Below, in pieces: positions 5,815 to 34,703 of a DNA stretch of 37,376 nucleotides. A program made the translations under genes and the position numbers. Position 1 is the stretch's first letter. Each line of letters starts with the position of its first letter. The notes under the pieces are model-generated. The model worked only from the letters and a program-made list of their open reading frames with translations. It made no database searches and was not told the DNA's origin. Origin of the DNA: Nemertoderma westbladi (lineage: Eukaryota; Animalia; Xenacoelomorpha); NCBI GenBank assembly GCA_032718475.1, contig JAUCBJ010002467.1, positions 1 through 37,376 of the forward strand, read 5' to 3'.

Positions 5815-5879
5815 AAGCAAATAAATCGTATAACTACTGAGGCCGCAGGCCGAAGTAGTTATACATGATTTATTTGCTT
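5815..5879. repeat. 65-bp near-perfect inverted repeat/hairpin
   Basis: AAGCAAATAAATC-GTATAACTACT..GGCC-GCA-GGCC..AGTAGTTATAC-(AT)GATTTATTTGCTT. Confidence 0.85.
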
Positions 5880-8133: not shown

Positions 8134-8847
8134 TTATTTTTCTGAGAATTAGATTCAGCTCAGAATTCTGTGCTTCTGTACGGAAGTTTCAGACTTTGGC
8201 CCAGGAACATCTGATGGCCTTGGTTATAAGAACGTAAATCTATTAACTTGTCATTTGACTTACTTAACTGCACATGCATTATGACTTGTAACACATATTG
8301 ACTGTTCAGCGCACTGTTTTACTTCTGTTTCATATTGTATTAATTGTTGTTTATATTAATGGATGTTATATTTGGAGAATACCGATAAATAATCATAAAC
8401 CCCTCAATCTTATTGATTACTGAGGTAAGAGGAAAAGAGTATACCGGTAGCAACTGCGACTTAAATTATAGTGGTTTTGTGTGAATTAAATGCTATTTCA
8501 TAATCCTTACGTGTGTCAGTTGCAATCCTCCTTATATATGATCAAATTCAGTGAGGGTCGGCAATTTAGTGTGAAGTAGTGTGAAGTCGTGTGAAAGTCA
8601 ATAAAGCATCTCCTAAAGAATGCGCTATTTACGAAACTCTGTGGCCATCTAGTTGTGATTATAGTATAAGTCATAACTCTGTTTTTATACTTAAAGCGCC
8701 ACGTCCTAAAGGAACTGTTAATATTTCCCCGAAAGTAAATATACTGTAGTTGTCAGAGATTATATACAGTAGTAGCGATCAATCGAATAATACAGAGTAG
8801 TCTACACCGCAATACTTCCCAGGGAACCCGAATCCAGTCTCCCCTGT

Positions 8848-10755: not shown

Positions 10756-11737
10756 TCTATGATATCTAGAACACAACACCTAAAACGGAAATGTTAATAC
10801 TTACCCCTTAAGTGAACATAATTGTTAGGAATTATACAATGAGAATCAATCGAATGATACATAACCAGCCCAATTCTAGTAAGCCGATATATTTCAGGCT
10901 CCCATTAAAGGTGGGTCATACGCTGCGCTAACTGATTTATATCTGATGTTAAAACGTTTGGCAAACTTAAGCAAAATTTCTGTGATAATAAAATTTGACG
11001 GTGAAAATTATCTAACTCAAAAGCGCGAACAGGTGTAAATGCAGAAGTGTAGGCGTGTGTAAGTGTCGGCGTAGCTTTTACCCCCATTTTTTATTTGGTT
11101 TTATAAATATTTTTAAACTAGTTAAAAAATTTAGAAATTGTCATTTTTATTTATAAATTTCACTAAAATATTTAGAAGAAAAAACGCTGCTCTGATATAC
11201 CGGTACAGTATTTACATATTTTAATTAAAAAATAAACTATTACCAGTATTGATTGTGAAACCTTTTCCATAAATACGTGGAAGGACGGCACATCCATTCC
11301 TAAGTTTCCATAATTACTGTACTTATCATATATAACCAAGTTCAATTCAACACAACACAGTAGTAAAGTAGTAAACTCGAACTCCATAGCATTAATCCAA
11401 ATAGGGAAATATACTGTAGATATCTATCCATAATCACTATTCATAACAAACGGACTTTGGTCAACTTCCCAGACAGGCTGTAAGCCGTACAGCAGTAGCA
11501 GTCTGCCACTCGCCACTACTGCAAGCAGCACTGCCAGTACGCAGTACAGCAGTAACCCAGCTCTGTACACTACAGCACAGCACTACATCGCATTTAAATT
11601 ACAATACTGCAATACAGCAATAGGCCTACTTCAGTACTTATTGTACCGGTACCACACTTCCTGTACTTCAGTAGGCCCTACTTCAGTACTTACTACTGCA
11701 GCAATAGGACGACTAAGCACAAACAAACCCTGAAAAT

Positions 11738-12259
11738 ATGGCAAGTAAGGCGGCAGCTTCGAAACGGGCTGGAGGTAAGAAACGCGTACAACGCGCGACT
11801 AGTAATGTATTCGCTATGTTCGATCAGAATCAAATACAAGAGTTTAAAGAGGCCTTCAACATGATAGACCAAAACCATGACGGGTTTATTAATAAGGATG
11901 ATCTAAGAGATATGTTGTTCTCTTTGGGCAAGGAGCCCGGAGATTCTTATCTGGATGACATGATTAACGAAGCTCCTGGGCCTATCAACTTCACAATGTT
12001 CCTAACCCTATTCGGGGAGCGCCTGCAGGGCACAGACCCTGAAGAAGTCATCAGAAATGCATTCTCTAACTTCGATGACGATCTTACAGGAATTATTCCG
12101 GAGGAGAACTTGCGTGAGTTGCTGATGACTATGGGCGATCGGTTTACGGAAGACGAAGTCGACGAGATGTTCCGAGACGCCCCGATAGATAAACAAGGAG
12201 GATTTAATTACCCGGAATTCACAAAGATCCTTAAACACGGAGTTAAAGAAAAGGAATAG
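11738..12259 (+). CDS. MYL12: Myosin II regulatory light chain (non-muscle/smooth type; MYL12/MYL9/sqh family), intronless CDS, 173 aa
   Basis: [17 protein letters not shown] phosphorylation motif, EF-hand [39 protein letters not shown]-terminal [11 protein letters not shown] intact from ATG to TAG. Confidence 0.97.
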
Positions 12260-15249
12260 ATGGTTTAGTGCCGGCCATATCGGTATAAATAGCAAACCGG
12301 GTTATGTTTTGTTGTTTGGTCTATTTAAATTCCATTGTTTTATATAGCTGTATAGGCTGATAGGGGTTGGCTGTACTGACTCTGTCTGACTGTGTTGGTA
12401 CCACTATGTACCGCGTACCGGTACCGGTATTAGCGGTAACAGCATTGTTCTTGCTTCCATAAGCACGCAAGCTTAGCAGCTTGCTTCAACATTGCTGCAC
12501 GATTATCGTTTAAGTATATAACAATAGGTAATTAAAAGCAAATTAAAATTAATTTGTGCAGCAATGATGAGCTGATTTCTGGGATATTCGAATCTAAAAC
12601 TCATAAATTTGTGAAATATTAATCTTCAGCTAGCTCACTTTCTTTGGGGGATGTCATGTTAGAGGCTCAGTGACAATGTTTATCTGCCAGGCTGCAAGAG
12701 TTGAGGTCTACACCCTAACTGTTATGTGGCCATAAACTGGGACCTAAACGAGAGCCTTATGGGGTTATGCACTGCACCATGGTTACATGACAGTTTCAAT
12801 TATTGTGATGACCCGACCAACTAACCCAAAACAAACACAAATCCAATTTAAATTACAGAACTATATATATATTACAGAATTAAGTATATTATACCGGAAG
12901 TCTTTGTTGTGGTAGATAGACTTTCGAAAGTTCTCTAAATTATTTTAAAACTTTCCCAATTTACTTCGTTTACACATAACATCAAAACCAAGTCGTATTA
13001 ACAAATAGGCGGAAAGTAAGTTCGCTTGCTGAATACTTAATATACTTCAAAATGAGTTTCATATTCGTATCCCACCAATACAACCTATCTCTAGGCCATT
13101 AGTTTATTTTATTTATGTGTAACGCTCTGCTCTCCTATGCTGACAATGCCGCTAAACGCTTACCTTTACTAGTCAAGCTATTAACTCTGTACATCGTACT
13201 GAGTACAAGTGTATATTTTCGACTACTCACCCTAACTAGTTACTCTTTCTACCAGGATTAGTCCATATTATCTCTCCTTTGTGCTGCTCTTTGATGGTAA
13301 CTGTACTGAAATTATTATTGGGAGGAATTAGTTATTTCTTGGGGCGGGTCATTGACTAGTAAATATAATTATGTGTTATATTATTATTATAAATCGATTA
13401 GATCGAATATTATTTTATTCCTGGGTCGATTGAAATACCTTTAACGGTGATTATTTCATTTTTAGCGAGTATTTAATTTGCTTTATTATTGCTTAGTTGT
13501 TAAATGTTTAATTATAATTAACATAATATTCCAGTTATTTTACGATATTATATTATTTTGATATCTGATGTTTAATGAATATTGTATTGGTAATATTTTA
13601 TAATATTTATAGCATGCGTGAAATATTTAGCATAATAATTGAGTTCTAAGTTATTACCCATTTTAAAGTTCGGGGGCCCTCCCGGCACTCACTCATGTAT
13701 GAAACATTCATATACTCGGGTAATTTTCTACGGTCCCACCCAATAAAACTTGAAAGAATAGATTTTCATTACCTGAAAAATTACCCCGTCTCACTTAATT
13801 TTGTAATTAAGTCAGTGGCAGTACGAATCACTGCGCTTTGTTTGACAAAATGTTAGTGGAAGAATCGTTATTTTATAATTCTAAAATATTAAATAATATT
13901 AGGCTGCGTGCGTTTACACCAGTGTTGACGTGTCACAGTTGATAGTTGACGTGTCACTATTATTGTGACCGCCAACTGTGACACATTAAAATGAAATCCG
14001 TAGATAGGACAGGGTGTACATAATGTAAAACTTTATAAGACGGCTAACTTTATACGGCAGGTGAGAATTGTTTTTACGGCGGACGAGAAACCAGCAACGG
14101 CTCTCAGACACAGCCTCATATGATTTGGGACCGTAATCTGGTACACCTGGTACAGGTCAGCCAACACTTACCTTCATTTTACCAGGTTTTGGCGCAAATT
14201 GACCGCAAGTAATTATATTACAATTAGAATCACTGAACCTATTATCTGCGTAGAAACACCATAAAATATACAAAGTTAGAAAAAGTAGAAAAGTAATATT
14301 TATTATTTTTAGAAAGACCAGAGAGTGGAAGATAATATTGCAATTATTTTCACTAAATTCACTATTTAAAATATGAATGGGATTTTGGGTTATCTTCCTC
14401 AGTAGGGCATTCATCGTTGTTTCCCAAATTACCTTGGATACCATATCGACTAGTCACGATTGAACGAACTCCAAATTAAGCGACATAAGCTAATAAGGAT
14501 CACCAACGCACTAACTGTTTGACTCAGAGAAAGTATGAATCATATGTGCGATACTTAAGTGATACGCAGATTCCCAATCTTGTAGAAAGCTAATGTATTT
14601 GAAAATAATTAAATTGGTATAAAATGTTCGGATTACTAAATAACAATTACTAGAATTATTAACTGCTTGATCTATGTAGGTACTAGGTACGGGTCTATTA
14701 TCAGTAGTACAGCCTGGTGCATGGGCTTCTATTTAATAATATTAACGCTTTTTAATACGATATTCTTAAAGTCGTGGTATCCCTCGACATGAGCATTAAG
14801 TAAGCTCATAGTTTTGTTTAAATCCGGCAGTAAAGCATAATTATGTGGTAACTATAGAGGGATAACAATAATAGATAGACTCCTTAAGTCAATTGTATGA
14901 TTCGTTTTTAACCGCTAGGTTCGTTGGTCAGGGTCAGGGTCGCTATTGTCGTGGGACAGGGTCCCGCGAGAATGTTTAAGTATTTGTGCAGTATTGTGTG
15001 TGGTAAGGTATGATCTGTGCACTGCGTATGTCGTACCAATGTACTAAGTCTGTCCTTGGTGGTGGTATTTTTATTTTGTTTCTACCAATGGAGGTAGACA
15101 AGGTGCACCTAGTGTTACTTATTATTTTGCATGTATCTCGATTGTATGGTAAAAATGATTCGTAAAGTTTACAAAACGAATGGGTTCTTTGGTGTATTGC
15201 AATTATTACTCCTCATGGTCGATACTGTTATTTTTTTTTTTTTTTTTAC

Positions 15250-15445
15250 CGGGATAGGTTTAGATAGACCCGTAGAAAGCAAAAGGTATACTGTAGACAT
15301 TGAAATTTATAAAGTGAGGACAGGTTCATAAGTTTCAATTGTTTAAATAAGATATGTGTATGATGGTCATACGGTTTCAAGAGGATTATGCGGCGGATTA
15401 TTTTTTTCTGTAATTTTATTAGCGGAAGAAGGTAGGTAGGAGTAT
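15250..15445 (-). mobile_element. CR1/L2-group LINE ORF2 C-terminal fragment
   Basis: PTYLLPLIKLQKKIIRRII..PYDHHTHILFKQLKLMNL resembles the post-RT region of CR1/L2-group elements. Confidence 0.6.
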
Positions 15446-15497
15446 GGGATTCGCCGCGGATAATCATTTAACAAACCGGGAAACAGCTAATTAATAT

Positions 15498-15755
15498 AAC
15501 AAGCGCGAAATCGCGCAAATGTCCGCGTCTACTAACGCATGAACTGTCTCCTTGAATGGCTTACTAACAATCTTACAACAGCAAAAAATTCACCGGAATG
15601 GGGGCATTGAACTCGGTACCTAGAGATTCCAAGACCCACGCTCTGCCAAATGAGCCACTGGGGCTGCATCAATCATTAATACCAAAACCTAACGAGAAAT
15701 TAACAACAACAACAACCGGGTGAATACTAGAGGTATCGCTACGCGAACCTATAAA
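15498..15755 (-). mobile_element. Second HINE-like family member with a single 52-bp-type unit and an internal tRNA-derived segment
   Basis: Same termini as 3566-4495 (GCGCGAAATCGCGC hairpin; AGGTATCGCTACGCGAACCT), one copy of GTCCGCGTCTACTAAC..GAACTGTCTCCTTGAATGGCTTACTA, and an (AAC)n microsatellite. Confidence 0.7.
15595..15665 (-). pseudogene. tRNA-derived sequence (SINE head or tRNA pseudogene)
   Basis: Minus strand GCCCCAGTGGCTCATTTGGCAGAGCG...GAGTTCAATGCCCC has A-box-like and B-box-like motifs at tRNA spacing, with a D-stem GCTC/GAGC. Confidence 0.55.
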
Positions 15756-15779
15756 CATAAGAGCATTGATTGATTTTTG

Positions 15780-16315
15780 TTCAGTTTCCGTTATGATTAT
15801 AAATTCCGAAAATACACAATTTTTTGTAGTAAATGGTTTAGATACGGATCAAGACAGTTTATTTTCGGTGATACAATTGTCGCACATTGTAATAGTTATA
15901 CTTATCTTGGACCCCCTACACTGAAAATGGTAAGATGTCTGACGTAATTAAACTACAAATAAACAAATGTGAAGTAGCGACAATAAATTTAAGTATTTTT
16001 TGGGCCAATAATACAACTATGCCGTTTGTTATTAAACGTCAAGTATTTGAAGCTTGTCTTCTGAGTAGCGTACTATATGCCTCAGAAATGTGGTTGGTTC
16101 GTGATTTTAAGAGAATTGAATCTACTACCATAAAATGAAAATGATTAAATGTCTCCTGGGTCTCACGGGTACAGACCCCTACAAACAGGTTTGAGGCAGG
16201 TTTTACACCCCTGGAGGACAGAATACTAAATTCTCGTAGAAATTTCGTTAGGATAATGTTGTCGAGACCTGACCCAGAAATACCATTTTTCCAGGCTGTT
16301 GATATTGTTAAGGCC
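15780..16315 (+). mobile_element. Degenerate non-LTR retrotransposon fragment (RT C-terminal region)
   Basis: CNSYTYLG motif near 15888, then VFEACLLSSVLYASEMW and IKCLLG, with stops and frameshifts. Confidence 0.7.
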
Positions 16316-16334
16316 CGTGCTCCACTGGCAACAC

Positions 16335-17570
16335 ATGGGTTGTAAAGGCTTTTGCGGAATTAGCTAGTCATTTTCCCCGCAAAGTACTCTGTAGGTGTTT
16401 TAGCGGACATAAAAAGCCGTTTCCTTACTGTACCGGTGTTTTAGTGGACATAAAAAGCCATTTCTTCTGTATGTGTACTTTAGCGGACATAACTAGCGAT
16501 TTTATGTCGCAATACGCCAAAATACTCTTGATACAGTGTAAGTTCAGATGACGACATCTATCAGCTGATATGTCCACGTGTAACTTTTTCTTTGTTCTTT
16601 GTTCGGTCGACCAATCAGAGCGATTTTCATTTTATTTGTACAGAAACCTCCGGGAAATCGCGCAATGCATTATGGTTTATGTTTACCTTTTTTCCTAAGC
16701 CTAGAACATCGGCTATGGAATTATTCTGTGTTTCAGACTTTAGCCAAACATTAGAACGGCTTTGATTATAGAAACGTATAACTGTTATCATATTGTCACA
16801 AACTGCATACAGCCCATATCATACCATACATACCTTTCACCGCATTATTTTACTGCTATTTACTGTCGGTTATTAATTGTATCAGTTGATGGAATATTGT
16901 TATATTTGGAGAATATCGATAAATAATCATAAAACCCCCAATCTTCTTGATATACTGAAGGTGAGAGACCGGTTACATATAGCAATTGCGACTTACATTA
17001 TAGTGGTTTTGGAGTGAATCTAATGCTATTTCATAGGCCCTACATGTATCGGTTGCTGTTCTCTTTATATGTGACTAAAATTAGTGAAGGTCGGCAGATC
17101 GGTGTGCAGCATTGTGCGGTAGTGTGCATGAATGTGATAGATAACAAAGCATCTCCTAAAGAATGCGCTTTATACGTGAATCAATAGCCATCCTGTTGTG
17201 TTTAGTGTAAGTCATAACTCTGTTTACATACTTAGAGCGCCACGTCCTAAAGGAACTGTTGATATTTCCCGAAAGTGAATAATATTTGTCAGAGATTATA
17301 TATTAACGATCAATCGAATAATACAGTAGGCCTACACCGCAATAAGGTCAGAGCTTCCGAATCCAGTCTCCCGGGTAAATCCAGCGGGTGAATGGTCGCG
17401 CATAGGCTGGCTTCGGCTAATGTAGTGCATCAAATACTTGTCATAGGCTAAAGTCGATTTATAACCTAGAAGACACCTAAATTTGGCAGGTTAAACTGCT
17501 AAAGGTCTAAAAGCGCGAACATGGGTCTTATGTCAAAAGTCGTTTTCAGATTTTGTCTGAGTCCGTATGT
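16335..17570. mobile_element. Unclassified non-coding interspersed element, copy 2 (without the nested insertions of copy 1)
   Basis: Collinear with the copy 1 segments. The left end has reiterated TTTAGCGGACATAA motifs and the right end has TATGTCAAAAG motifs, possibly degenerate TIRs. Confidence 0.7.
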
Positions 17571-17757
17571 CAAAAGTATAGGAAGGGATCTTGGGGTCTT
17601 AGCCTCGAATGATAAGTTTATTTTACCGAAAATAACTTATCTTTTATTGGCGCAATTGTAGGACTAATCCTATCACATGCTTTTTTTTTAACCGGGTAGT
17701 GTACAAATTTAGGAATCGCGTAATTTTTCTTGAAATTAATATCTCATATCTCTCCAA

Positions 17758-17800
17758 ACCACGTACGCGTTTCGACCTTACTGGGTCTCATCAGCGTGGT
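17758..17800 (-). ncRNA. Minimal type I hammerhead ribozyme (copy 1)
   Basis: ACCACG-CTGATGA-GACC-CAGTAA-GGTC-GAAA-C-GC-GTA-CGTGGT on the minus strand. The conserved core is complete, stems I and II are perfect, and stem III is the palindrome ACGCGT. Confidence 0.9.
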
Positions 17801-17860
17801 GTCGGATTCGAACCTGGGACCTCGAGGTGGAAGCCGAGACTACAACCACTAGGCCACAGG
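17798..17860 (-). promoter_or_regulatory. tRNA-like Pol III internal promoter (A and B boxes) fused to the hammerhead
   Basis: A box TGGCCTAGTGG (17846-17856), anticodon-arm-like CTCGGCTTCCACCTCGAG, B box GGTTCGAATCC (17804-17814). The acceptor stem does not form, so this is not a functional tRNA. Confidence 0.75.
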
Positions 17861-18014
17861 TTCTTGAGATATGGAGTATTAATTTCAAAGCCAGCTGCCA
17901 TTTTATTAGCCCCTGATTTTTCGATTATTGGTAGTAACAATGTGTTGGCAAGCTGTATTTATCGAGGTGTTTGTTATTATAAATTTACTTCGAGGTTCTA
18001 GGTTCGAATCCGAC

Positions 18015-18057
18015 ACCACGCTGATGAGACCCAGTAAGGTCGAAACGCGTACGTGGT
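18015..18057 (+). ncRNA. Minimal type I hammerhead ribozyme (copy 2)
   Basis: ACCACG 18015-20, CTGATGA 18021-27, stem II GACC/GGTC, GAAA 18042-45, GTA cleavage triplet 18049-51, CGTGGT 18052-57. Preceded by a B box at 18001-18011. Confidence 0.9.
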
Positions 18058-18484
18058 TTGGAGAGATATGAGATATTAATTTCAAGAAAAATTACGCGAT
18101 TCCTAAATTTGTACACTACCCGGTTAAAAAGTACGCATGTGATGGGATTAGTCCTACAATTGCGCCAATAAAAGATAAGTTATTTTCGGTAAAATAAACT
18201 TATCATTCGAGGCTAAGACCCCTAGATCCCTTCCTATAATAAATGTATAATAACAAACACCTCGAAAAATACAGCTTGCCAACACATTGTTACTATCAAT
18301 ATTTTCAAAAGTATAGCTTCCACTGACTGGTAAGTCATAAATCTTTATTAAATAATATAAGATGCATCTCACATTCAATGGAACACTTGAACATTTAATG
18401 GCTTTGCTGCTATCCAAAGTAACCAATCACAGACCTCTTGGCAGAAAGAACGGTGACAAGTTGCCTCATTCCATGAGTCAGGCG

Positions 18485-18608
18485 GCTATTGTACATTGTT
18501 TTATATTATACAGGTAGAGAGAGTTAGACGGTTATTGTACATTGTTTTATATTATACAGCGAGAGAGAGTGAGTTAGGCTGTTATTGTACATTGTTATAT
18601 ATTATACA
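18485..18608 (-). repeat. Three ~47-50-bp tandem copies of the U4 3' flank
   Basis: ATTGTACATTGTT(T/A)TATATTATACAG at about 18487, 18534 and 18584. A related duplication lies at 5707/5753 after U4 copy 1. Confidence 0.85.
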
Positions 18609-18749
18609 GGTACCCCGAGGGCCCCACACAAATTGCTCCTGGTTCCACCGAAGTTTCCCCAGGGCGGGTTATTGGGAATAGTTTTCAATTAGCAATAATC
18701 GCGCCTCGGTTAAACCTCATCGGCTACGATACTGCCTCTGCGCAAAGAT
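18609..18749 (-). ncRNA. U4: U4 spliceosomal snRNA (identical to copy 1)
   Basis: Exact reverse complement of 5569-5709, with a conserved upstream PSE-like region at about 18780-18815. Confidence 0.96.
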
Positions 18750-19076
18750 ACCTAAACAACCTCCACCCATCTACTTCAATCAAGTAGTTTAACATTAATT
18801 GGGTATCATTAAAATAAAATAAATATATGGATACATATTTTACTTATCCGGTACTAATTGTAAAAACATAAGACAACATTTATATATTATAATTTTCATA
18901 AACAATTAATTTAAAATTATTGATAAATAAAAACGTTTTAAATGTTAATAATGTTTGAATAACTTTCTATAATTTATTACCTGATCGTCTCTTAGCGATA
19001 TTTAAAAGAAGGATTGCCTCCCCAAAGTACATTACTTTACACGCCACCTAGCGTCTAATATCGTGAACTAACTAAC

Positions 19077-19248
19077 CCCAGCGCTATCAAATATCCTTTT
19101 CGTTCCGCTCTTGTTGCTATAGAGATGAGCCAGTTCTGGGTCTGGGCTAAGGTACGGAAGATCTAGGAGATCAGATATCTCCATGTCGTCTATGTGGAGG
19201 TTGCCAGGAACTATGTAGGCATCCTTACCAGATACTATGTTCTTTATT
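19077..19248 (-). CDS. IQCH: IQCH exon (7th visible): [21 protein letters not shown]...[18 protein letters not shown]
   Basis: TTTAG| acceptor and |GTTAGT donor. Phase matches the preceding exon (CG+A). Peptide resembles IQCH as recalled ([12 protein letters not shown]). Confidence 0.88.
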
Positions 19249-19434
19249 CTAAACATAACAAAACGTCGGTCAAACAATAAACTTGATTACTATCCCATTA
19301 CGAGTTTTACATCGGAAACGGTTTCCAACACTTAATCTACACAAACTCTACATATATTCATATCCTTTCCCCAAACTCCCATTGCCGATATTGAAAACTT
19401 GCTCGTCTATAGGTACCAACAAAGTCTATAGGCA

Positions 19435-21805
19435 CCAAACTTATCGCTTGAGGGCTCGATCAATGTACTTGAGCACAGTGCTTAAACCAAACTTACCGCT
19501 TGAGTGCTCGATCAATGTACTTGAGCACAGTGCTTAAACCATACTTACCGCTTGAGTGCTCGATCAATGTACTGGAGCACAGTGCTTAAACCAAACTTAC
19601 CGCTTGAGTGCTCGATCAATGTACTGGAGCACAGTGCTTAAACCAAACTTACCGCTTGAGTGCTCGATCAATGTACTGGAGCACAGTGCTTAAACCAAAC
19701 TTACAGTTTGAGTGCTCGATCAATGTACTGGAGCACAGTGCTTAAACCAAACTTACCGCTTGAGTGCTCGATCAATGTACTGGAGCACAGTGCTTAAACC
19801 AAACTTACAGTTTGAGTGCTCGATCAATGTACTTGAGCACAGTGCTTAAACCAAACTTACCGCTTGAGTGCTCGATCAATGTACTTGAGCACAGTGCTTA
19901 AACCATACTTACCGCTTGAGTGCTCGATCAATGTACTGGAGCACAGTGCTTAAACCAAACTTACCGCTTGAGTGCTCGATCAATGTACTGGAGCACAGTG
20001 CTTAAACCAAACTTACCGCTTGAGTGCTCGATCAATGTACTGGAGCACAGTGCTTAAACCAAACTTACCGCTTGAGTGCTCGATCAATGTACTGGAGCAC
20101 AGTGCTTAAACCAAACGTACAGTTTGAGTGCTCGATCAATGTACTGGAGCACAGTGCTTAAACCAAACTTACCGCTTGAGTGCTCGATCAATGTACTTGA
20201 GCACAGTGCTTAAACCAAACTTACCGCTTGAGTGCTCGATCAATGTACTGGAGCACAGTGCTTAAACCAAACTTACCGCTTGAGTGCTCGATCAATGTAC
20301 TGGAGCACAGTGCTTAAACCAAACTTACCGTTTGAGTGCTCGATCAATGTACTGGAGCACAGTGCTTAAACCAAACTTACCGCTTGAGTGCTCGATCAAT
20401 GTACTGGAGCACAGTGCTTAAACCAAACTTACCGCTTGAGTGCTCGATCAATGTACTGGAGCACAGTGCTTAAACCAAACTTACCGCTTGAGTGCTCGAT
20501 CAATGTACTGGAGCACAGTGCTTAAACCAAACTTACCGCTTGAGTGCTCGATCAATGTACTGGAGCACAGTGCTTAAACCAAACTTACCGCTTGAGTGCT
20601 CGATCAATGTACTGGAGCACAGTGCTTAAACCAAACTTACCGCTTGAGTGCTCGATCAATGTACTGGAGCACAGTGCTTAAACCAAACTTACCGCTTGAG
20701 TGCTCGATCAATGTACTGGAGCACAGTGCTTAAACCAAACTTACCGCTTGAGTGCTCGATCAATGTACTGGAGCACAGTGCTTAAACCAAACTTACCGCT
20801 TGAGTGCTCGATCAATGTACTGGAGCACAGTGCTTAAACCAAACTTACCGCTTGAGTGCTCGATCAATGTACTGGAGCACAGTGCTTAAACCAAACTTAC
20901 CGCTTGAGTGCTCGATCAATGTACTTGAGCACAGTGCTTAAACCAAACTTACCGCTTGAGTGCTCGATCAATGTACTGGAGCACAGTGCTTAAACCAAAC
21001 TTACCGCTTGAGTGCTCGATCAATGTACTGGAGCACAGTGCTTAAACCAAACTTACCGCTTGAGTGCTCGATCAATGTACTGGAGCACAGTGCTTAAACC
21101 AAACTTACCGCTTGAGTGCTCGATCAATGTACTGGAGCACAGTGCTTAAACCAAACTTACCGCTTGAGTGCTCGATCAATGTACTGGAGCACAGTGCTTA
21201 AACCAAACTTACCGCTTGAGTGCTCGATCAATGTACTGGAGCACAGTGCTTAAACCAAACTTACCGCTTGAGTGCTCGATCAATGTACTGGAGCACAGTG
21301 CTTAAACCAAACTTACCGCTTGAGTGCTCGATCAATGTACTGGAGCACAGTGCTTAAACCAAACTTACCGCTTGAGTGCTCGATCAATGTACTGGAGCAC
21401 AGTGCTTAAACCAAACTTACCGCTTGAGTGCTCGATCAATGTACTGGAGCACAGTGCTTAAACCAAACTTACCGCTTGAGTGCTCGATCAATGTACTGGA
21501 GCACAGTGCTTAAACCAAACTTACAGTTTGAGTGCTCGATCAATGTACTGGAGCACAGTGCTTAAACCAAACTTACAGCTTGAGTGCTCGATCAATGTAC
21601 TGGAGCACAGTGCTTAAACCAAACTTACCGCTTGAGTGCTCGATCAATGTACTGGAGCACAGTGCTTAAACCAAACTTACCGCTTGAGTGCTCGATCAAT
21701 GTACTGGAGCACAGTGCTTAAACCAAACTTACCGCTTGAGTGCTCGATCAATGTACTGGAGCACAGTGCTTAAACCAAACTTACCGCTTGAGTGCTCGAG
21801 GGCTG
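19435..21805 (-). repeat. 52-bp tandem array x45 built from the IQCH exon 3' end plus splice donor
   Basis: Minus-strand unit GTAAGTTTGGTTTAAGCACTGTGCTCCAGTACATTGATCGAGCACTCAAGCG. CCAAAC from 19435 to 21775 spans exactly 45 x 52. Confidence 0.97.
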
Positions 21806-22016
21806 TACTTGAGCACAGTACTCAAGCACATCTTATGATCAGGAAAACGTTTGATCGCATCAGGTACTATAACGGTAAACCGAGAGTCCACGGGACTCTG
21901 GTCATCAGCGTTGCCTGTAGCAACAGCGTTACGTAGGCCCAGAAGACGACTGTAATATTGTTCCATATCCTCTGTGATTGGCACCGGTGAGATGTAAACT
22001 ACATCAACATTGGGAT
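21785..22016 (-). CDS. IQCH: IQCH exon (6th visible): DPNVDVVYISP...HKMCLSTVLKYSPRALKR
   Basis: TTTTAG| acceptor and |GTAAGT donor, phase 1 in and phase 2 out. Resembles IQCH NVIYI..HMCLAT.LMYSPKAIKR. Confidence 0.9.
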
Positions 22017-22040
22017 CTAAAACAGGAAGTAATATTGTAA

Positions 22041-25000
22041 AATTCAATCTGCTGCACCTGTGACCCAGGGTTATTCTGATTGGTTCAGTGTATAATTCAG
22101 TCTGGTGCACCAGTGACCCAGGGTTATTCTGATTGATTCAGTGTATAATTCAGTCTTATGCACCTGTGACCCAGGGTTATTCTGATTGATTCAGTGTATA
22201 ATTCAGTCTTATGCACCTGTGACCCAGGGTTATTCTGATTGGTTCAGTGTATAATTCAGTCTTATGCACCTGTGACCCAGGGTTATTCTGATTGGTTCAG
22301 TGTATAATTCAGTCTGGTGCACCAGTGACCCAGGGTTATTCTGATTGGTTCAGTGTATAATTCAGTCTTATGCACCTGTGACCCAGGGTTATTCTGATTG
22401 GTTCAGTGTATAATTCAGTCTTATGCACCTGTGACCCAGTGTTATTCTGATTGGTTCAGTGTATAATTCAGTCTTATGCACCTGTGACCCAGGGTTATTC
22501 TGATTGGTTCAGTGTATAATTCAGTCTTATGCACCTGTGACCCAGTGTTATTCTGATTGGTTCAGTGTATAATTCAGTCTTATGCACCTGTGACCCAGGG
22601 TTATTCTGATTGGTTCAGTGTATAATTCAGTCTTATGCACCTGTGACCCAGGGTTATTCTGATTGGTTCAGTGTATAATTCAGTCTTATGCACCTGTGAC
22701 CCAGGGTTATTCTGATTGGTTCAGTGTATAATTCAGTCTTATGCACCTGTGACCCAGTGTTATTCTGATTGGTTCAGTGTATAATTCAGTCTTATGCACC
22801 TGTGACCCAGGGTTATTCTGATTGGTTCAGTGTATAATTCAGTCTTATGCACCTGTGACCCAGGGTTATTCTGATTGGTTCAGTGTATAATTCAGTCTTA
22901 TGCACCTGTGACCCAGTGTTATTCTGATTGGTTCAGTGTATAATTCAGTCTTATGCACCTGTGACCCAGGGTTATTCTGATTGGTTCAGTGTATAATTCA
23001 GTCTTATGCACCTGTGACCCAGGGTTATTCTGATTGGTTCAGTGTATAATTCAGTCTTATGCACCTGTGACCCAGGGTTATTCTGATTGGTTCAGTGTAT
23101 AATTCAGTCTTATGCACCTGTGACCCAGGGTTATTCTGATTGGTTCAGTGTATAATTCAGTCTTATGCACCTGTGACCCAGGGTTATTCTGATTGGTTCA
23201 GTGTATAATTCAGTCTTATGCACCTGTGACCCAGGGTTATTCTGATTGGTTCAGTGTATAATTCAGTCTGGTGCACCTGTGACCCAGGGTTATTCTGATT
23301 GGTTCAGTGTATAATTCAGTCTTATGCACCTGTGACCCAGGGTTATTCTGATTGGTTCAGTGTATAATTCAGTCTTATGCACCTGTGACCCAGGGTTATT
23401 CTGATTGGTTCAGTGTATAATTCAGTCTTATGCACCTGTGACCCAGGGTTATTCTGATTGGTTCAGTGTATAATTCAGTCTTATGCACCTGTGACCCAGG
23501 GTTATTCTGATTGGTTCAGTGTATAATTCAGTCTTATGCACCTGTGACCCAGGGTTATTCTGATTGGTTCAGTGTATAATTCAGTCTTATGCACCTGTGA
23601 CCCAGGGTTATTCTGATTGGTTCAGTGTATAATTCAGTCTGGTGCACCTGTGACCCAGGGTTATTCTGATTGGTTCAGTGTATAATTCAGTCTTATGCAC
23701 CTGTGACCCAGGGTTATTCTGATTGGTTCAGTGTATAATTCAGTCTGGTGCACCTGTGACCCAGGGTTATTCTGATTGGTTCAGTGTATAATTCAGTCTT
23801 ATGCACCTGTGACCCAGGGTTATTCTGATTGGTTCAGTGTATAATTCAGTCTTATGCACCTGTGACCCAGGGTTATTCTGATTGGTTCAGTGTATAATTC
23901 AGTCTTATGCACCTGTGACCCAGGGTTATTCTGATTGGTTCAGTGTATAATTCAGTCTTATGCACCTGTGACCCAGGGTTATTCTGATTGGTTCAGTGTA
24001 TAATTCAGTCTGGTGCACCTGTGACCCAGGGTTATTCTGATTGATTCAGTGTATAATTCAGTCTTATGCACCTGTGACCCAGGGTTATTCTGATTGGTTC
24101 AGTGTATAATTCAGTCTTATGCACCTGTGACCCAGGGTTATTCTGATTGGTTCAGTGTATAATTCAGTCTGGTGCACCTGTGACCCAGGGTTATTCTGAT
24201 TGGTTCAGTGTATAATTCAGTCTTATGCACCTGTGACCCAGGGTTATTCTGATTGGTTCAGTGTATAATTCAGTCTTATGCACCTGTGACCCAGGGTTAT
24301 TCTGATTGGTTCAGTGTATAATTCAGTCTTATGCACCTGTGACCCAGGGTTATTCTGATTGGTTCAGTGTATAATTCAGTCTTATGCACCTGTGACCCAG
24401 GGTTATTCTGATTGGTTCAGTGTATAATTCAGTCTGGTGCACCTGTGACCCAGGGTTATTCTGATTGATTCAGTGTATAATTCAGTCTTATGCACCTGTG
24501 ACCCAGGGTTATTCTGATTGGTTCAGTGTATAATTCAGTCTGGTGCACCTGTGACCCAGGGTTATTCTGATTGGTTCAGTGTATAATTCAGTCTTATGCA
24601 CCTGTGACCCAGGGTTATTCTGATTGGTTCAGTGTATAATTCAGTCTTATGCACCTGTGACCCAGGGTTATTCTGATTGATTCAGTGTATAATTCAGTCT
24701 TATGCACCTGTGACCCAGGGTTATTCTGATTGGTTCAGTGTATAATTCAGTCTTATGCACCTGTGACCCAGGGTTATTCTGATTGGTTCAGTGTATAATT
24801 CAGTCTGGTGCACCTGTGACCCAGGGTTATTCTGATTGGTTCAGTGTATAATTCAGTCTGGTGCACCTGTGACCCAGGGTTATTCTGATTGATTCAGTGT
24901 ATAATTCAGTCTTATGCACCTGTGACCCAGGGTTATTCTGATTGGTTCAGTGTATAATTCAGTCTTATGCACCTGTGACCCAGGGTTATTCTGATTGGTT

Positions 25001-28000
25001 CAGTGTATAATTCAGTCTTATGCACCTGTGACCCAGGGTTATTCTGATTGGTTCAGTGTATAATTCAGTCTGGTGCACCTGTGACCCAGGGTTATTCTGA
25101 TTGGTTCAGTGTATAATTCAGTCTGGTGCACCTGTGACCCAGGGTTATTCTGATTGGTTCAGTGTATAATTCAGTCTGGTGCACCTGTGACCCAGGGTTA
25201 TTCTGATTGGTTCAGTGTATAATTCAGTCTTATGCACCTGTGACCCAGGGTTATTCTGATTGGTTCAGTGTATAATTCAGTCTTATGCACCTGTGACCCA
25301 GGGTTATTCTGATTGGTTCAGTGTATAATTCAGTCTGGTGCACCTGTGACCCAGGGTTATTCTGATTGGTTCAGTGTATAATTCAGTCTTATGCACCTGT
25401 GACCCAGGGTTATTCTGATTGGTTCAGTGTATAATTCAGTCTTATGCACCTGTGACCCAGGGTTATTCTGATTGGTTCAGTGTATAATTCAGTCTGGTGC
25501 ACCTGTGACCCAGGGTTATTCTGATTGGTTCAGTGTATAATTCAGTCTGGTGCACCTGTGACCCAGGGTTATTCTGATTGGTTCAGTGTATAATTCAGTC
25601 TTATGCACCTGTGACCCAGGGTTATTCTGATTGGTTCAGTGTATAATTCAGTCTGGTGCACCTGTGACCCAGGGTTATTCTGATTGATTCAGTGTATAAT
25701 TCAGTCTTATGCACCTGTGACCCAGGGTTATTCTGATTGGTTCAGTGTATAATTCAGTCTTATGCACCTGTGACCCAGGGTTATTCTGATTGGTTCAGTG
25801 TATAATTCAGTCTGGTGCACCTGTGACCCAGGGTTATTCTGATTGATTCAGTGTATAATTCAGTCTTATGCACCTGTGACCCAGGGTTATTCTGATTGGT
25901 TCAGTGTATAATTCAGTCTTATGCACCTGTGACCCAGGGTTATTCTGATTGGTTCAGTGTATAATTCAGTCTTATGCACCTGTGACCCAGGGTTATTCTG
26001 ATTGGTTCAGTGTATAATTCAGTCTTATGCACCTGTGACCCAGGGTTATTCTGATTGGTTCAGTGTATAATTCAGTCTTATGCACCTGTGACCCAGGGTT
26101 ATTCTGATTGGTTCAGTGTATAATTCAGTCTTATGCACCTGTGACCCAGGGTTATTCTGATTGGTTCAGTGTATAATTCAGTCTTATGCACCTGTGACCC
26201 AGGGTTATTCTGATTGGTTCAGTGTATAATTCAGTCTTATGCACCTGTGACCCAGGGTTATTCTGATTGGTTCAGTGTATAATTCAGTCTTATGCACCTG
26301 TGACCCAGGGTTATTCTGATTGGTTCAGTGTATAATTCAGTCTTATGCACCTGTGACCCAGGGTTATTCTGATTGGTTCAGTGTATAATTCAGTCTTATG
26401 CACCTGTGACCCAGGGTTATTCTGATTGGTTCAGTGTATAATTCAGTCTTATGCACCTGTGACCCAGGGTTATTCTGATTGGTTCAGTGTATAATTCAGT
26501 CTTATGCACCTGTGACCCAGGGTTATTCTGATTGATTCAGTGTATAATTCAGTCTTATGCACCTGTGACCCAGGGTTATTCTGATTGGTTCAGTGTATAA
26601 TTCAGTCTTATGCACCTGTGACCCAGGGTTATTCTGATTGGTTCAGTGTATAATTCAGTCTTATGCACCTGTGACCCAGGGTTATTCTGATTGGTTCAGT
26701 GTATAATTCAGTCTTATGCACCTGTGACCCAGGGTTATTCTGATTGGTTCAGTGTATAATTCAGTCTGGTGCACCTGTGACCCAGGGTTATTCTGATTGA
26801 TTCAGTGTATAATTCAGTCTTATGCACCTGTGACCCAGGGTTATTCTGATTGGTTCAGTGTATAATTCAGTCTTATGCACCTGTGACCCAGGGTTATTCT
26901 GATTGATTCAGTGTATAATTCAGTCTTATGCACCTGTGACCCAGGGTTATTCTGATTGGTTCAGTGTATAATTCAGTCTTATGCACCTGTGACCCAGGGT
27001 TATTCTGATTGGTTCAGTGTATAATTCAGTCTTATGCACCTGTGACCCAGGGTTATTCTGATTGGTTCAGTGTATAATTCAGTCTTATGCACCTGTGACC
27101 CAGGGTTATTCTGATTGGTTCAGTGTATAATTCAGTCTTATGCACCTGTGACCCAGGGTTATTCTGATTGGTTCAGTGTATAATTCAGTCTTATGCACCT
27201 GTGACCCAGGGTTATTCTGATTGGTTCAGTGTATAATTCAGTCTTATGCACCTGTGACCCAGGGTTATTCTGATTGGTTCAGTGTATAATTCAGTCTTAT
27301 GCACCTGTGACCCAGGGTTATTCTGATTGGTTCAGTGTATAATTCAGTCTTATGCACCTGTGACCCAGGGTTATTCTGATTGGTTCAGTGTATAATTCAG
27401 TCTTATGCACCTGTGACCCAGGGTTATTCTGATTGGTTCAGTGTATAATTCAGTCTTATGCACCTGTGACCCAGGGTTATTCTGATTGGTTCAGTGTATA
27501 ATTCAGTCTTATGCACCTGTGACCCAGGGTTATTCTGATTGGTTCAGTGTATAATTCAGTCTGGTGCACCTGTGACCCAGGGTTATTCTGATTGGTTCAG
27601 TGTATAATTCAGTCTGGTGCACCTGTGACCCAGGGTTATTCTGATTGATTCAGTGTATAATTCAGTCTTATGCACCTGTGACCCAGGGTTATTCTGATTG
27701 GTTCAGTGTATAATTCAGTCTTATGCACCTGTGACCCAGGGTTATTCTGATTGGTTCAGTGTATAATTCAGTCTTATGCACCTGTGACCCAGGGTTATTC
27801 TGATTGGTTCAGTGTATAATTCAGTCTTATGCACCTGTGACCCAGGGTTATTCTGATTGGTTCAGTGTATAATTCAGTCTGGTGCACCTGTGACCCAGGG
27901 TTATTCTGATTGGTTCAGTGTATAATTCAGTCTTATGCACCTGTGACCCAGGGTTATTCTGATTGGTTCAGTGTATAATTCAGTCTGGTGCACCTGTGAC

Positions 28001-31000
28001 CCAGGGTTATTCTGATTGGTTCAGTGTATAATTCAGTCTGGTGCACCTGTGACCCAGGGTTATTCTGATTGGTTCAGTGTATAATTCAGTCTTATGCACC
28101 TGTGACCCAGGGTTATTCTGATTGGTTCAGTGTATAATTCAGTCTTATGCACCTGTGACCCAGGGTTATTCTGATTGGTTCAGTGTATAATTCAGTCTTA
28201 TGCACCTGTGACCCAGGGTTATTCTGATTGGTTCAGTGTATAATTCAGTCTTATGCACCTGTGACCCAGGGTTATTCTGATTGGTTCAGTGTATAATTCA
28301 GTCTTATGCACCTGTGACCCAGGGTTATTCTGATTGGTTCAGTGTATAATTCAGTCTTATGCACCTGTGACCCAGGGTTATTCTGATTGGTTCAGTGTAT
28401 AATTCAGTCTTATGCACCTGTGACCCAGGGTTATTCTGATTGATTCAGTGTATAATTCAGTCTTATGCACCTGTGACCCAGGGTTATTCTGATTGGTTCA
28501 GTGTATAATTCAGTCTTATGCACCTGTGACCCAGGGTTATTCTGATTGGTTCAGTGTATAATTCAGTCTTATGCACCTGTGACCCAGGGTTATTCTGATT
28601 GGTTCAGTGTATAATTCAGTCTTATGCACCTGTGACCCAGGGTTATTCTGATTGGTTCAGTGTATAATTCAGTCTTATGCACCTGTGACCCAGGGTTATT
28701 CTGATTGGTTCAGTGTATAATTCAGTCTTATGCACCTGTGACCCAGGGTTATTCTGATTGGTTCAGTGTATAATTCAGTCTTATGCACCTGTGACCCAGG
28801 GTTATTCTGATTGGTTCAGTGTATAATTCAGTCTTATGCACCTGTGACCCAGGGTTATTCTGATTGGTTCAGTGTATAATTCAGTCTGGTGCACCTGTGA
28901 CCCAGGGTTATTCTGATTGGTTCAGTGTATAATTCAGTCTTATGCACCTGTGACCCAGGGTTATTCTGATTGGTTCAGTGTATAATTCAGTCTTATGCAC
29001 CTGTGACCCAGGGTTATTCTGATTGGTTCAGTGTATAATTCAGTCTTATGCACCTGTGACCCAGGGTTATTCAGATTGGTTCAGTGTATAATTCAGTCTG
29101 GTGCACCAGTGACCCAGGGTTATTCTGATTGGTTCAGTGTATAATTCAGTCTGGTGCACCTGTGACCCAGGGTTATTCAGATTGGTTCAGTGTATAATTC
29201 AGTCTGGTGCACCTGTGACCCAGGGTTATTCTGATTGGTTCAGTGTATAATTCAGTCTTATGCACCTGTGACCCAGGGTTATTCAGATTGGTTCAGTGTA
29301 TAATTCAGTCTGGTGCACCAGTGACCCAGGGTTATTCTGATTGGTTCAGTGTATAATTCAGTCTGGTGCACCTGTGACCCAGGGTTATTCTGATTGGTTC
29401 AGTGTATAATTCAGTCTTATGCACCTGTGACCCAGTGTTATTCTGATTGGTTCAGTGTATAATTCAGTCTTATGCACCTGTGACCCAGGGTTATTCTGAT
29501 TGGTTCAGTGTATAATTCAGTCTTATGCACCTGTGACCCAGGGTTATTCTGATTGGTTCAGTGTATAATTCAGTCTTATGCACCTGTGACCCAGGGTTAT
29601 TCTGATTGGTTCAGTGTATAATTCAGTCTTATGCACCTGTGACCCAGGGTTATTCTGATTGGTTCAGTGTATAATTCAGTCTTATGCACCTGTGACCCAG
29701 GGTTATTCTGATTGGTTCAGTGTATAATTCAGTCTTATGCACCTGTGACCCAGGGTTATTCTGATTGATTCAGTGTATAATTCAGTCTTATGCACCTGTG
29801 ACCCAGGGTTATTCTGATTGGTTCAGTGTATAATTCAGTCTTATGCACCTGTGACCCAGGGTTATTCTGATTGGTTCAGTGTATAATTCAGTCTTATGCA
29901 CCTGTGACCCAGGGTTATTCTGATTGGTTCAGTGTATAATTCAGTCTTATGCACCTGTGACCCAGGGTTATTTTGATTGGTTCAGTATATAATTCAGTCT
30001 TATGCACCTGTGACCCAGGGTTATTCTGATTGGTTCAGTGTATAATTCAGTCTTATGCACCTGTGACCCAGGGTTATTCTGATTGATTCAGTGTATAATT
30101 CAGTCTTATGCACCTGTGACCCAGGGTTATTCTGATTGGTTCAGTGTATAATTCAGTCTTATGAACCTGTGACCCAGGGTTATTTTGATTGGTTCAGTGT
30201 ATAATTCAGTCTGGTGCACCTGTGACCCAGGGTTATTCTGATTGATTCAGTGTATAATTCAGTCTTATGCACCTGTGACCCAGGGTTATTCTGATTGGTT
30301 CAGTGTATAATTCAGTCTTATGCACCTGTGACCCAGGGTTATTCTGATTGGTTCAGTGTATAATTCAGTCTTATGCACCTGTGACCCAGGGTTATTCTGA
30401 TTGGTTCAGTGTATAATTCAGTCTTATGCACCTGTGACCCAGGGTTATTCTGATTGGTTCAGTGTATAATTCAGTCTTATGCACCTGTGACCCAGGGTTA
30501 TTCTGATTGGTTCAGTGTATAATTCAGTCTTATGAACCTGTGACCCAGGGTTATTTTGATTGGTTCAGTGTATAATTCAGTCTGGTGCACCTGTGACCCA
30601 GGGTTATTCTGATTGGTTCAGTGTATAATTCAGTCTTATGCACCTGTGACCCAGGATTATTCTGATTGGTTCAGTGTATAATTCAGTCTTATGCACCTGT
30701 GACCCAGGGTTATTCTGATTGGTTCAGTGTATAATTCAGTCTTATGCACCTGTGACCCAGGGTTATTCTGATTGGTTCAGTGTATAATTCAGTCTTATGA
30801 ACCTGTGACCCAGGGTTATTTTGATTGGTTCAGTGTATAATTCAGTCTGGTGCACCTGTGACCCAGGGTTATTCTGATTGGTTCAGTGTATAATTCAGTC
30901 TTATGCACCTGTGACCCAGGATTATTCTGATTGGTTCAGTGTATAATTCAGTCTTATGCACCTGTGACCCAGGGTTATTCTGATTGGTTCAGTGTATAAT

Positions 31001-31015
31001 TCAGTCTGCTGCACC
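22041..31015. repeat. 53-bp satellite, ~169 copies (~9 kb), intronic
   Basis: Unit GCACCTGTGACCCAGGGTTATTCTGATTGGTTCAGTGTATAATTCAGTCTTAT with a few recurrent variants (TTAT/TGGT, TTGG/TTGA). No spacers. Confidence 0.99.
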
Positions 31016-31185
31016 TTACCGTAAATGTCACAAACACTCACCGTAAATGTCACAAACACTCACCGTAAATGTCACAAACACTCACCGTAAATGTCACAAA
31101 CACTCACCGTAAATGTCACAAACACTCACCGTAAATGTCACAAACACTCACCGTAAATGTCACAAACACTCACCGTAAATGTCAC
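31015..31185 (-). repeat. 22-bp tandem array x8 built from the IQCH exon 3' end plus splice donor
   Basis: CCGTAAATGTCAC at 31019, 31041 and onward to 31173. Minus-strand unit TTTGTGACATTTACG|GTGAGTG. Confidence 0.96.
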
Positions 31186-31324
31186 ACAGACGTCCCATTT
31201 GTCGGTTCTGGAGGGCTGGCAGATTGGTCAGACTTTGTCGAATATGCTGAGAATATCCCCGGGATGGGATGTGAATCACTGTCCTTCTCGAATTCTTGAT
31301 TCTATTCCATTGAGATTTTAGTAA
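31174..31324 (-). CDS. IQCH: IQCH exon (5th visible): LLKSQWNRIKNSRRTVIHIPSRGYSQ...QMGRLCDIY
   Basis: TTTGCAG| acceptor and |GTGAGT donor. Motif RRTxIHIPSxGYSQ..GRLCDI is characteristic of IQCH. Not in the supplied ORF track. Confidence 0.9.
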
Positions 31325-31479: not shown

Positions 31480-31612
31480 GTTAGATCTCAGCATAAAGTT
31501 GTCCTTCTGTAAACGTCGAGTTTCGCTGAGTTGTTTTCTTATTCTCGATAATTTGGCGCTCATGATCCAAGATATCGCGATCATACCAGCGGCCCATTTC
31601 TGCTTCCGATAC
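31480..31612 (-). CDS. IQCH: IQCH exon (4th visible): YRKQKWAAGMIAISW...DNFMLRSN
   Basis: GCGTAG| acceptor and |GTTAGT donor, phases consistent with neighbouring exons. Confidence 0.88.
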
Positions 31613-31689: not shown

Positions 31690-32280
31690 CTAACTGATCT
31701 AGACTTTGCTGACGACTTAGGGGACTGTCAGAATCACTAGAGGGAGACAAAAGGCTCCTCTGTTTCTATTAATGTAAAATTAAATTAATTAAACTCATTG
31801 GAGCAGGTTGCTTCTAGTGTTGGTCTTTTTGTAAACTCCAACAAGACTAAAATCATGATAGTGAACCTAGACAGCCCTCTATAAATGTCTGATCGTAAGG
31901 GCATAAGCTCTAGGGACGGCTTGCTTGAGCACATGGATGACTTCTGCTACTTGGGATTTGGATCATGGATCCGAAAGTCAGGTGAGGACCTTCGAATACA
32001 TAAGGGAAAGGCACGGGCAGCCTTGAATAGGCTTTCCAGGATTTGGAAGTCACCGAGAATTAATCGGAAACTTAAGGTCCGGTTATTTAGAGCAGCAGTA
32101 GTTCCAGTACTCCTCTATGGGAGTCCATGCTGGGCTCTAACTGCTGGGGACACCAAATCTCTGGATGGCACATTCACAAGAATGCTACGCCGGGTTCATT
32201 GTGTCAAGTACAATGCACACATCTCCAACCAGACACTATATAACATTGGATGTGTTTCATTGGTTCCCCAAGCTTGACAC
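31690..32280 (+). mobile_element. Degenerate RTE-clade LINE fragment (intronic)
   Basis: DLDFADDL near 31696, VNSNKTK, DDFCYLG, LFRAAVVPVLLYG..W, DGTFTRMLR. Confidence 0.85.
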
Positions 32281-32609
32281 GAGCGAGGGACGTGAGAGGT
32301 TTATTTTGTCATAAGATATAAACTTAACGTTGTTCTGAACGTTTACTGTATGACGTTAACAGTTCAATGTTTATGAATAATATTTTATGAAACTAATAGT
32401 CAGTTACTACAACAGTACTAATAAGTTCATACAGTAGTTAGAAGGAAATTGATATTTCAGGGTGCTATGAGTTCCCGATGATATAATTGCTGAAATCAAC
32501 TCCCTCATGATGGATTCCACAACATTTGTTTCTAGGAAAGGTGGAAATTCATTAAAGGCGCCATGGGGTGATGCTCCTCAGCACAGCACAAGCTTGCTCT
32601 CAATTATTG

Positions 32610-32873: not shown

Positions 32874-33025
32874 CTTAGGTAGGCACTCCTCTCTTTATGA
32901 CACTTCCACGTTGCCTGTATCTTAGTAGCAGCCCGAATTTCCCGACCATCTCCCTCAAATTGCTGCCCGGATTTTGAAATAATTGGTAACACATCGTTGA
33001 GATTAGCAATACAGCTCAAAAGATC
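32874..33025 (-). CDS. IQCH: IQCH exon (3rd visible) containing the IQ motif: DLLSCIANL...AATKIQATWKCHKERSAYLR
   Basis: TTTACAG| acceptor and |GTGAGT donor. IQ motif KIQATWK. Not in the supplied ORF track. Confidence 0.9.
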
Positions 33026-33865: not shown

Positions 33866-34117
33866 CTGTGTAGTTGGAAGTTGATCCAATTCAAACCGGG
33901 ACGCTATATCTGCCAGACGTTCACCGATTATGTAGGCCACCGGTACCGTGTACCGTGCCAGTAGAGCTGCTAGCTGACTCAACACTGAGCTAATGCTGCC
34001 CCACTGCAGGCAGTAGAGCTGTTTGAATGCATGGAACTGGGGGTTGGGGTCCACTATCAGGCCATTGTGTAAAGGGAAACAGGCTAATCCGGTGCCGCGG
34101 TCACGTGATGGTGGCGG
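33866..34117 (-). CDS. IQCH: IQCH exon (2nd visible): PPPSRD...FHAFKQLYCLQWGSI...RFELDQLPTTQ
   Basis: TTCCAG| acceptor and |GTAAGT donor, 252 bp in phase 0/0. Resembles IQCH FLAFK..LAWG.I..YAIP. Confidence 0.85.
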
Positions 34118-34526
34118 CTGGAATAAATTTAGAAACTACAGGTAGAAAAGTAAACGAAACTGCCTATACTTTAACAACAAAAAACCCAATCTTAATCTGG
34201 GCTCGAACCCAGTTCTTTCATATCCTAAATCTGCCACTTAACGAGTGACCATCTATACCAAAGATATAATATCACCACTACAACAAAAATTACATTCTTT
34301 CTGAGGGTCCCTCTTTTCTACTACTACAACTACCTACCTCTCATAATCAACTTTGTATATAAAAAAATAACAAATAAATAAAATTTAAAAAATACCAGTG
34401 GACCATGACCATGTTCATGACCATAACAATAACCAATACACATTATAACTTATGGCTAGTGCTTCCTAACTGTATTTCTAACTGCGGCATTATTTCCGCG
34501 TGTCTCAAGAACTATGTCATTCTAAC

Positions 34527-34703
34527 CTGGGGTTGTATTTCCGCAAACTCTACTACGTTAGATAGCATACGACCTTCCACATATGATCTCTCAGAAGCCG
34601 ACCTATCCGAAATCGTCTTAGCCTCCGACTTGCTTCCGACTTGATCGGGAAGTTTACCCGTGGATGAGGAGTACACGGGGGGTTGTCCGAAGTGGGGATC
34701 CAA
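34527..34703 (-). CDS. IQCH: Probable IQCH exon (1st visible), poorly conserved region
   Basis: TTTCAG| acceptor and CAG|GTTAGA donor, 177 bp open in phase 0/0 compatible with the next exon, coding-like GC content. Peptide not independently recognised. Confidence 0.6.

Follow-up and report, generated by a model that had tools for sequence, protein, structure and literature searches.

Which 5′ splice site is taken when a coding exon ends inside a tandem repeat, each further copy of which carries the donor again within the intron, and does such an array serve a purpose? This question was raised by a gene on the minus strand of a Nemertoderma westbladi contig (JAUCBJ010002467.1, assembly GCA_032718475.1), of which positions 1 to 37,376 were analysed (hereafter the window). 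The first-pass annotation had named the gene IQCH and had proposed strict first-donor selection, a copy-number-tunable switch based on unproductive splicing and nonsense-mediated decay (NMD), or a sink for U1. Here the array is considered, with good confidence, to be a near-neutral minisatellite spanning the exon-intron junction. The spliceosome is predicted to choose the donor lying furthest upstream, so that the others would likely go unused, and rare decoy use would be removed by NMD.

The identification of the gene as IQCH was upheld by the best matches of its exons and by Pfam. Exon E6 matched two invertebrate IQCH-type proteins best (61% and 56%; 2 matches among 22 candidates). Using these two proteins in tblastn, six exons were located on the minus strand and delimited with a splice model: E2 (33866..34135, 270 nt), E3 (32874..33025, 152 nt, with the IQ motif PF00612) and E4 (31480..31612, 133 nt), all three with ordinary donors, followed by E5 (31174..31324, 151 nt), E6 (21785..22016, 232 nt) and E7 (19077..19248, 172 nt). 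E6 is bounded by AG and GT, has an open frame and aligns to residues 610-692 of oyster IQCH (59%, tblastn); its last 42 nt form the first, functional repeat copy. A probable exon E1 (34527..34703, minus strand, 177 nt), which encodes a poorly conserved part of the protein and has weak homology, was placed by splice signals and frame continuity. Pfam matches, to the IQ motif and to the start of the IQCH ATP-grasp domain, were obtained in two of the five exon stretches scanned; the latter, in E7, scored below the curated cut-off (PF24923, E 3.6e-5). E7 starts with AATAAA (19243-19248, minus strand), a canonical polyadenylation hexamer that here codes for conserved residues, probably by coincidence.

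In the resulting seven-exon model, every intron is of the GT-AG type and the exons join into one frame that runs open through 429 codons. The spliced part shares 208 of 426 aligned residues with oyster IQCH and scores highest with hemichordate proteins (54-55%), barely above those of molluscs and echinoderms. When aligned with the best 120 of 314 homologues, five junctions showed 0-1 gapped cells of 600; near the E6-E7 junction, where the exons join in frame, none of the 600 cells was gapped. The remaining exons, from about residue 750 onward, were sought in positions 1-19070, where no candidate was backed by more than 2 of the 120 homologues (best E 0.05); judged by this search, the 3′ half of the gene is either beyond the window or missing. 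An intronless myosin regulatory light chain gene (11738-12259, plus strand; 173 aa, EF-hands, at most 78% identical to the matches listed) lies antisense to and downstream of the last IQCH exon found. It is probably nested in a long IQCH intron and is possibly a retrogene. In a metagenome scan, three of 503 pattern matches (L001-L003) encoded IQCH relatives, on short contigs resembling ciliate-type nanochromosomes, with in-frame stops read as residues and, in L001 and L003, C4A4-type ends. No intron was present in these three at the two IQCH junctions studied, the loci being ciliate-type and not close animal relatives.

Tandem Repeats Finder (TRF) delimited the array behind E6 at 19434-21819 (period 52, 45.9 copies, 98% matches, score 4590), without indels. 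On the minus strand, 46 sites stand in exact 52-bp register; the first is the true donor, with its G of GT at 21784, and the other 45 are copies, the last of them at 19444. The minisatellite (19435..21784, minus strand) thus holds 45 intronic copies of nine unit types, counted from one assembled haplotype, and each unit joins 42 exon-like to 10 intron bases. This agrees with the 45 tandem copies of exon end and donor reported by the first-pass annotation, whose peptides for copy and exon, LSTVLQYIDRALKR versus LSTVLKYSPRALKR, were likewise reproduced, with synonymous differences at −39 and −36. Its estimate of about 44 decoy donors, mostly in the context of the true one, was also correct. GT is retained in 44 of the 45 copies, the hexamer being GTAAGT in 43, GTACGT in copy 32 and ATAAGT in copy 45; the three exon-side bases plus GTAAGT are unchanged in 38 copies, and 11 bases around the donor in 36. 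In copies 1-3, the donor is identical to the true one. The claim that only the most distal donor is mutated held for the GT; elsewhere, copy 32 differs at +4, six copies at −3 and/or −1 and two copies at +7. That most distal position (19435..19444, minus strand, GT to AT) borders on the unique tail of the intron, where the 3′ splice site lies (19249..19434, minus strand; splice model), and is likely the donor position used before duplication. The E6-E7 intron now measures 2536 nt and would measure 196 nt without the 45 copies, a swelling of about 13-fold.

Comparison of the 52-bp copies with their consensus gave 21 differences in 2340 positions (99.1% identity). The exonic copy differs from this consensus at 8 of 42 bases and the last copy at three positions; the array is homogenised inside, as in concerted evolution, and the edge units are left out. 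Variation is polar, with four of the 21 intronic differences falling in copies 1-22 and the remaining 17 in copies 23-45. Inflation of a short duplication by the assembler would account for the long runs of identical units, the sequence being that of an assembly alone, and is nonetheless judged highly improbable. The nine unit types are interspersed, differences are in excess distally, the 53-bp array described below contains block-duplicated variants, and the window has no N; both flanks of the 52-bp array are unique and lie in IQCH exon order. Erroneous copying of the exon would, moreover, not give a consensus that departs from it at eight positions.

The origin of the array may be pictured as a 52-bp tandem duplication across the donor of an intron of about 196 nt. 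The start of the intron has four bases in common with the exon at −52, and this similarity possibly seeded the first duplication. Slippage or unequal exchange would then have expanded and homogenised the intronic copies, with selection holding the exonic one. Loss of the GT at the last site would fit relief from constraint after an upstream donor took over, or may simply mark an edge unit. Two further features of the unit were recorded. An A-to-C change at −26, present in 39 of 45 copies, places a CAG 23 bases upstream of the decoy donors and formally creates a frame-shifting micro-exon per unit; its use is unlikely given several earlier AGs and a weak tract. Four adjacent substitutions separate the copies from the exon at −19 to −16. 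Together with bases 8 nt further downstream they make up a short inverted repeat, a pattern suggestive of a single template switch and not of four point changes.

The protein alignment distinguishes the first copy from all others. K, S and P encoded by the exonic copy in E6 are matched in 115, 120 and 119 of 120 homologues, and at these positions the 52-bp copies encode Q, I and D, found in none of the 120, so that the conserved K-Y-S-P is kept by the first copy alone. Because homologues share K, S and P and none has Q, I and D, the exonic copy is read from the alignment as the ancestral, selected state, from which the intronic copies have drifted.

Reading through the true 5′ splice site (21779..21787, minus strand; GT at 21784-21783) meets an in-frame TAA at +2 to +4, so that the immediate stop noted previously (CGG TAA) stands. 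All 44 GT decoys lead to this stop, which is codon 373 in the partial frame and lies upstream of the ATP-grasp domain and of the later junctions; functional protein would therefore require the first donor. The idea that every third decoy might be used in frame was considered and ruled out, as the stop lies ahead of them all. A stop after reading through nearly any donor is the default for introns, and for that reason the stop after decoy use is no evidence of design. Likewise, the conservation of the protein implies no more than that the functional product would come from the first donor.

Size and predicted folding were compared between true and decoy donors. If E6 used the donors of copies 1-3, the exons would be only 284-388 nt long. 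The predicted unpaired probability of the donor 9-mer at three window sizes was 0.032, 0.005 and 0.003 for the true donor, with decoy medians of 0.016, 0.008 and 0.003. Concealment of the decoys by RNA structure was rejected, since predicted folding does not separate the two kinds of donor; by the same prediction, accessibility would not favour the true donor, which speaks against near-neutrality.

The variant sites of the array give no indication that the decoys are preserved. No depletion of variant sites was detected at the decoy donors, four of the seven sites falling within the 9-base donor against about 1.2 expected. The hypergeometric P for at least four is 0.013, a value to be read with the low power of seven non-independent sites, in which changes at −3 and −1 mostly travel together. 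Purifying selection on the decoys, as expected under alternative splicing coupled to NMD, did not appear in this low-powered test. A weakening change at −1 occurs in five copies and most donor changes weaken the decoys; the +7 change raises the match to a U1-complementary 11-mer from 8 to 9 of 11 in two copies. The pattern amounts only to an absence of any sign that decoys are preserved. That 36 of 45 copies match the true donor over 11 bases and two match U1 better counts against the near-neutral reading.

The density of these sites (43 GTAAGT in 2.35 kb, most matching 8 of 11 bases of the same 11-mer) is what would lend weight to the idea that U1 snRNP, bound in quantity by the nascent array, changes splicing or shields the transcript. 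U1 is among the most abundant snRNPs, and a few nascent transcripts with 44 sites each can for that reason not deplete it; nor is there a conservation signal at the sites. The U1 sink proposed earlier was left without support and is hardly credible.

A second donor-spanning array, unmentioned in the first-pass annotation, was found by TRF and the splice model at the end of E5 (31018..31186, minus strand; 22 bp × 7.7). The true donor of E5, at 31173, is followed by seven further GT donors, each leading to a stop within five codons. Five nt past the last 22-bp donor, a 53-bp array of 169.5 copies begins (22036..31016, minus strand; TRF, splice model), which fills the E5-E6 intron. This intron measures 9157 nt, or about 99 nt when collapsed (166 anchors plus three units in three 106-bp gaps), a swelling of about 90-fold. 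The 53-bp array comprises 11 unit types with block duplications. It contains 165 CAG-GT sites, at which an acceptor is directly followed by a weak donor, an arrangement that formally resembles recursive splicing and has a poor pyrimidine tract. The possibility that this array spans the E6 acceptor was examined and rejected; the real acceptor lies in the unique tail at 22017 and gives an in-frame junction.

Tandem repeats are frequent in the window as a whole, where eight arrays cover 13,578 of 37,376 bases (36%). The array at 3586 matches a single dispersed copy at 15495-15570 (89-93%), and the array at 18475 matches a single dispersed copy at 5706-5747 (90%). Because two arrays thus grew from dispersed repeats, the amplifier looks blind to sequence, striking non-genic repeats as well. 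The former array (3586-4455, 16.7 copies), amplified from the dispersed repeat at 15495-15570, also has a 52-bp unit, unrelated in sequence to that in IQCH. When the array by which the window was selected is discounted, the six other arrays counted would include one or more that span any of the seven donors with a probability of about 0.065, and the occurrence of donor arrays at two consecutive exons counts to that extent against near-neutrality. A bias of arrays towards donors is possible; in ancestral introns that were short, any unit would come to lie close to a splice site.

Repeats of other kinds were also recorded. An inverted pair (17577-17828 and 17987-18238, 252 bp, 97% identity), together with a 62-bp inverted match (17926-17987 and 18240-18301), has the appearance of a foldback or MITE-type element, and an inverted copy of the 274-bp repeat at 5497-5766 is present at 18548-18821. 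Decayed coding-like repeats occur in introns and flanks of IQCH (32067-32283 and 33223-33459, 81% over 237 bp; approximately 9300-10750 and 35400-36300), which, by their motifs, resemble non-LTR retrotransposon remnants.

The arrangement at E6, treated as unusual in the first-pass annotation, belongs to a described class. Borensztajn et al. (2006; PMC1557585) described minisatellites that begin with a unit lying across an exon-intron boundary. The IQCH array is another case, with head-to-tail minisatellite units, a boundary-spanning first unit, a repeated intact donor and concerted evolution, and is notable for its copy number and for the second array. Among the papers listed by a literature search, none dealt with this IQCH locus. 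In the 37-bp VNTR of human F7 intron 7, the first unit likewise reaches from exon into intron, and the intron contains further, identical copies of the donor as pseudo-sites. According to the text cited, splicing is confined to the first of 5-9 identical donors and shifts to the next one once the first is inactivated, and 50 further clones gave no other splice product (PMC1557585). The F7 array differs in having 5-9 copies with 4 exon-like bases per unit, against 45 copies with 42 exon-like bases in IQCH; in addition, the IQCH copies have drifted from their exon, the host is an invertebrate, and first-donor use, shown for F7, is predicted here.

Four further arrays summarised in the same article have the same architecture and similar unit sizes. 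Only the authentic donor is used in LAMIN B2 (LMNB2; 100 bp × 10-15) and in PDGF intron 4 (81 bp × 16-18), whereas two pseudo-sites are also used in CBS intron 13 (15-20 units) and two proximal ones in human 6-16, which has 25 (PMC1557585). Use of such nearby pseudo-sites sets 6-16 and CBS apart from the first-donor use predicted for IQCH. The copy number in IQCH is about twice that of the largest human case listed, with 44 decoys against 4-25, an excess that also weighs against the near-neutral reading.

Invertebrate precedent is provided by the amphioxus 'mirages' (Adh3 and the globins BflGb6 and BflGb9), repeats of exon-intron borders that, as described, leave regular splicing undisturbed and show concerted evolution inside the cluster with its boundaries excluded (PMC3087553). 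Shared with IQCH are the presence of splice signals in border repeats, concerted evolution, excluded edges and more than one locus per genome. The globin clusters contain 3-6 units of approximately 150 bp, compared with 45 units of 52 bp; in the present gene, the exon before E6 ends in a donor array of its own, a 9-kb array separates the two, and the host is one whose IQCH is only about 55% identical to its best matches. Of the three readings offered by the first-pass annotation, strict or near-strict first-donor selection is thus the best supported, by analogy with the human and amphioxus cases and by the conservation of K, S and P; the first-donor step itself is extrapolated from mammalian and amphioxus precedent.

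Arrays of this class are not always silent, since 6-16 and CBS use pseudo-sites and ABCA7 shows both retention and length effects; by analogy, these exceptions count against the near-neutral reading. In the 25-bp VNTR of ABCA7 intron 18, the donor likewise lies within the repeat, and the units start at GT, without a copy of the exon. The cited text states that splicing at the second-unit donor produces a transcript with a premature stop, a target of NMD, that retention of one unit is independent of array length, and that, with longer arrays, expression is lower and the next exon is skipped more often (PMC5954066). With length effects measured, ABCA7 is the closest precedent for an influence of copy number; repeat length can alter splicing generally (PMC10078293), in passages that do not deal with donor arrays.

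On such grounds the IQCH array could be leaky, the nearest decoys being used measurably or array length disturbing the splicing of neighbouring exons, with copy number modulating IQCH dose without selection. The identity of the first three decoy donors with the true one, the modest exons that they would produce, the stop before the ATP-grasp domain and the human precedents for proximal decoy use and length dependence all fit this alternative. It is set back by the indifference of ABCA7 unit retention to array length (PMC5954066), by the uniform F7 clones (PMC1557585) and by the fact that growth to 45 copies was tolerated, and is considered unlikely.

Splicing regulators often limit themselves by unproductive splicing, and a selected switch, in which decoy use would be regulated, possibly by IQCH itself, and coupled to NMD with copy number as the dial, has to be weighed as well. 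In its favour, all decoys at both E5 and E6 lead to early stops, and two consecutive donors have been amplified; positive support was otherwise absent. Variant sites are not depleted at the decoys and most donor changes weaken them, the read-through stop is the intron default, the copies lack the conserved residues, and similar arrays in the window arise on dispersed repeats, seemingly regardless of sequence. Upstream-first selection, as described for F7, predicts in addition that distal copies add nothing (PMC1557585). Such a switch is very improbable. Self-regulation stays thinkable because mouse IQCH has been reported to occur in nuclear speckles and to affect isoform use in testis during spermatogenesis (PMC10112910). 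In its fullest form, IQCH would limit its own dose through two stop-coupled donor arrays (7 and 44 decoys), repeat number would act as a heritable dial and array births would be biased to 5′ splice sites; this is a long shot.

The preferred reading remains the near-neutral, junction-spanning minisatellite. Exon definition or 5′-to-3′ selection would take the first donor, and with the first donor picked, the array would therefore be spliced out whole. Were the second or third donor occasionally chosen, the resulting transcript would contain a stop and likely be degraded by NMD, a cost that would be small and unregulated. The array would matter more only if decoy use were substantial and dependent on length. 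The most-upstream-donor rule has been tested mainly in mammalian cells, and the locus offers a natural test bed, in which the eight differences between exon and copies, all within −42 to −16, would let RNA data gauge how strictly an invertebrate follows it. As interpreted here, the N. westbladi locus shows that tandem amplification can enlarge two introns of a conserved gene about 13- and 90-fold and add 44 near-perfect decoys to its donors, with the reading frame left intact.
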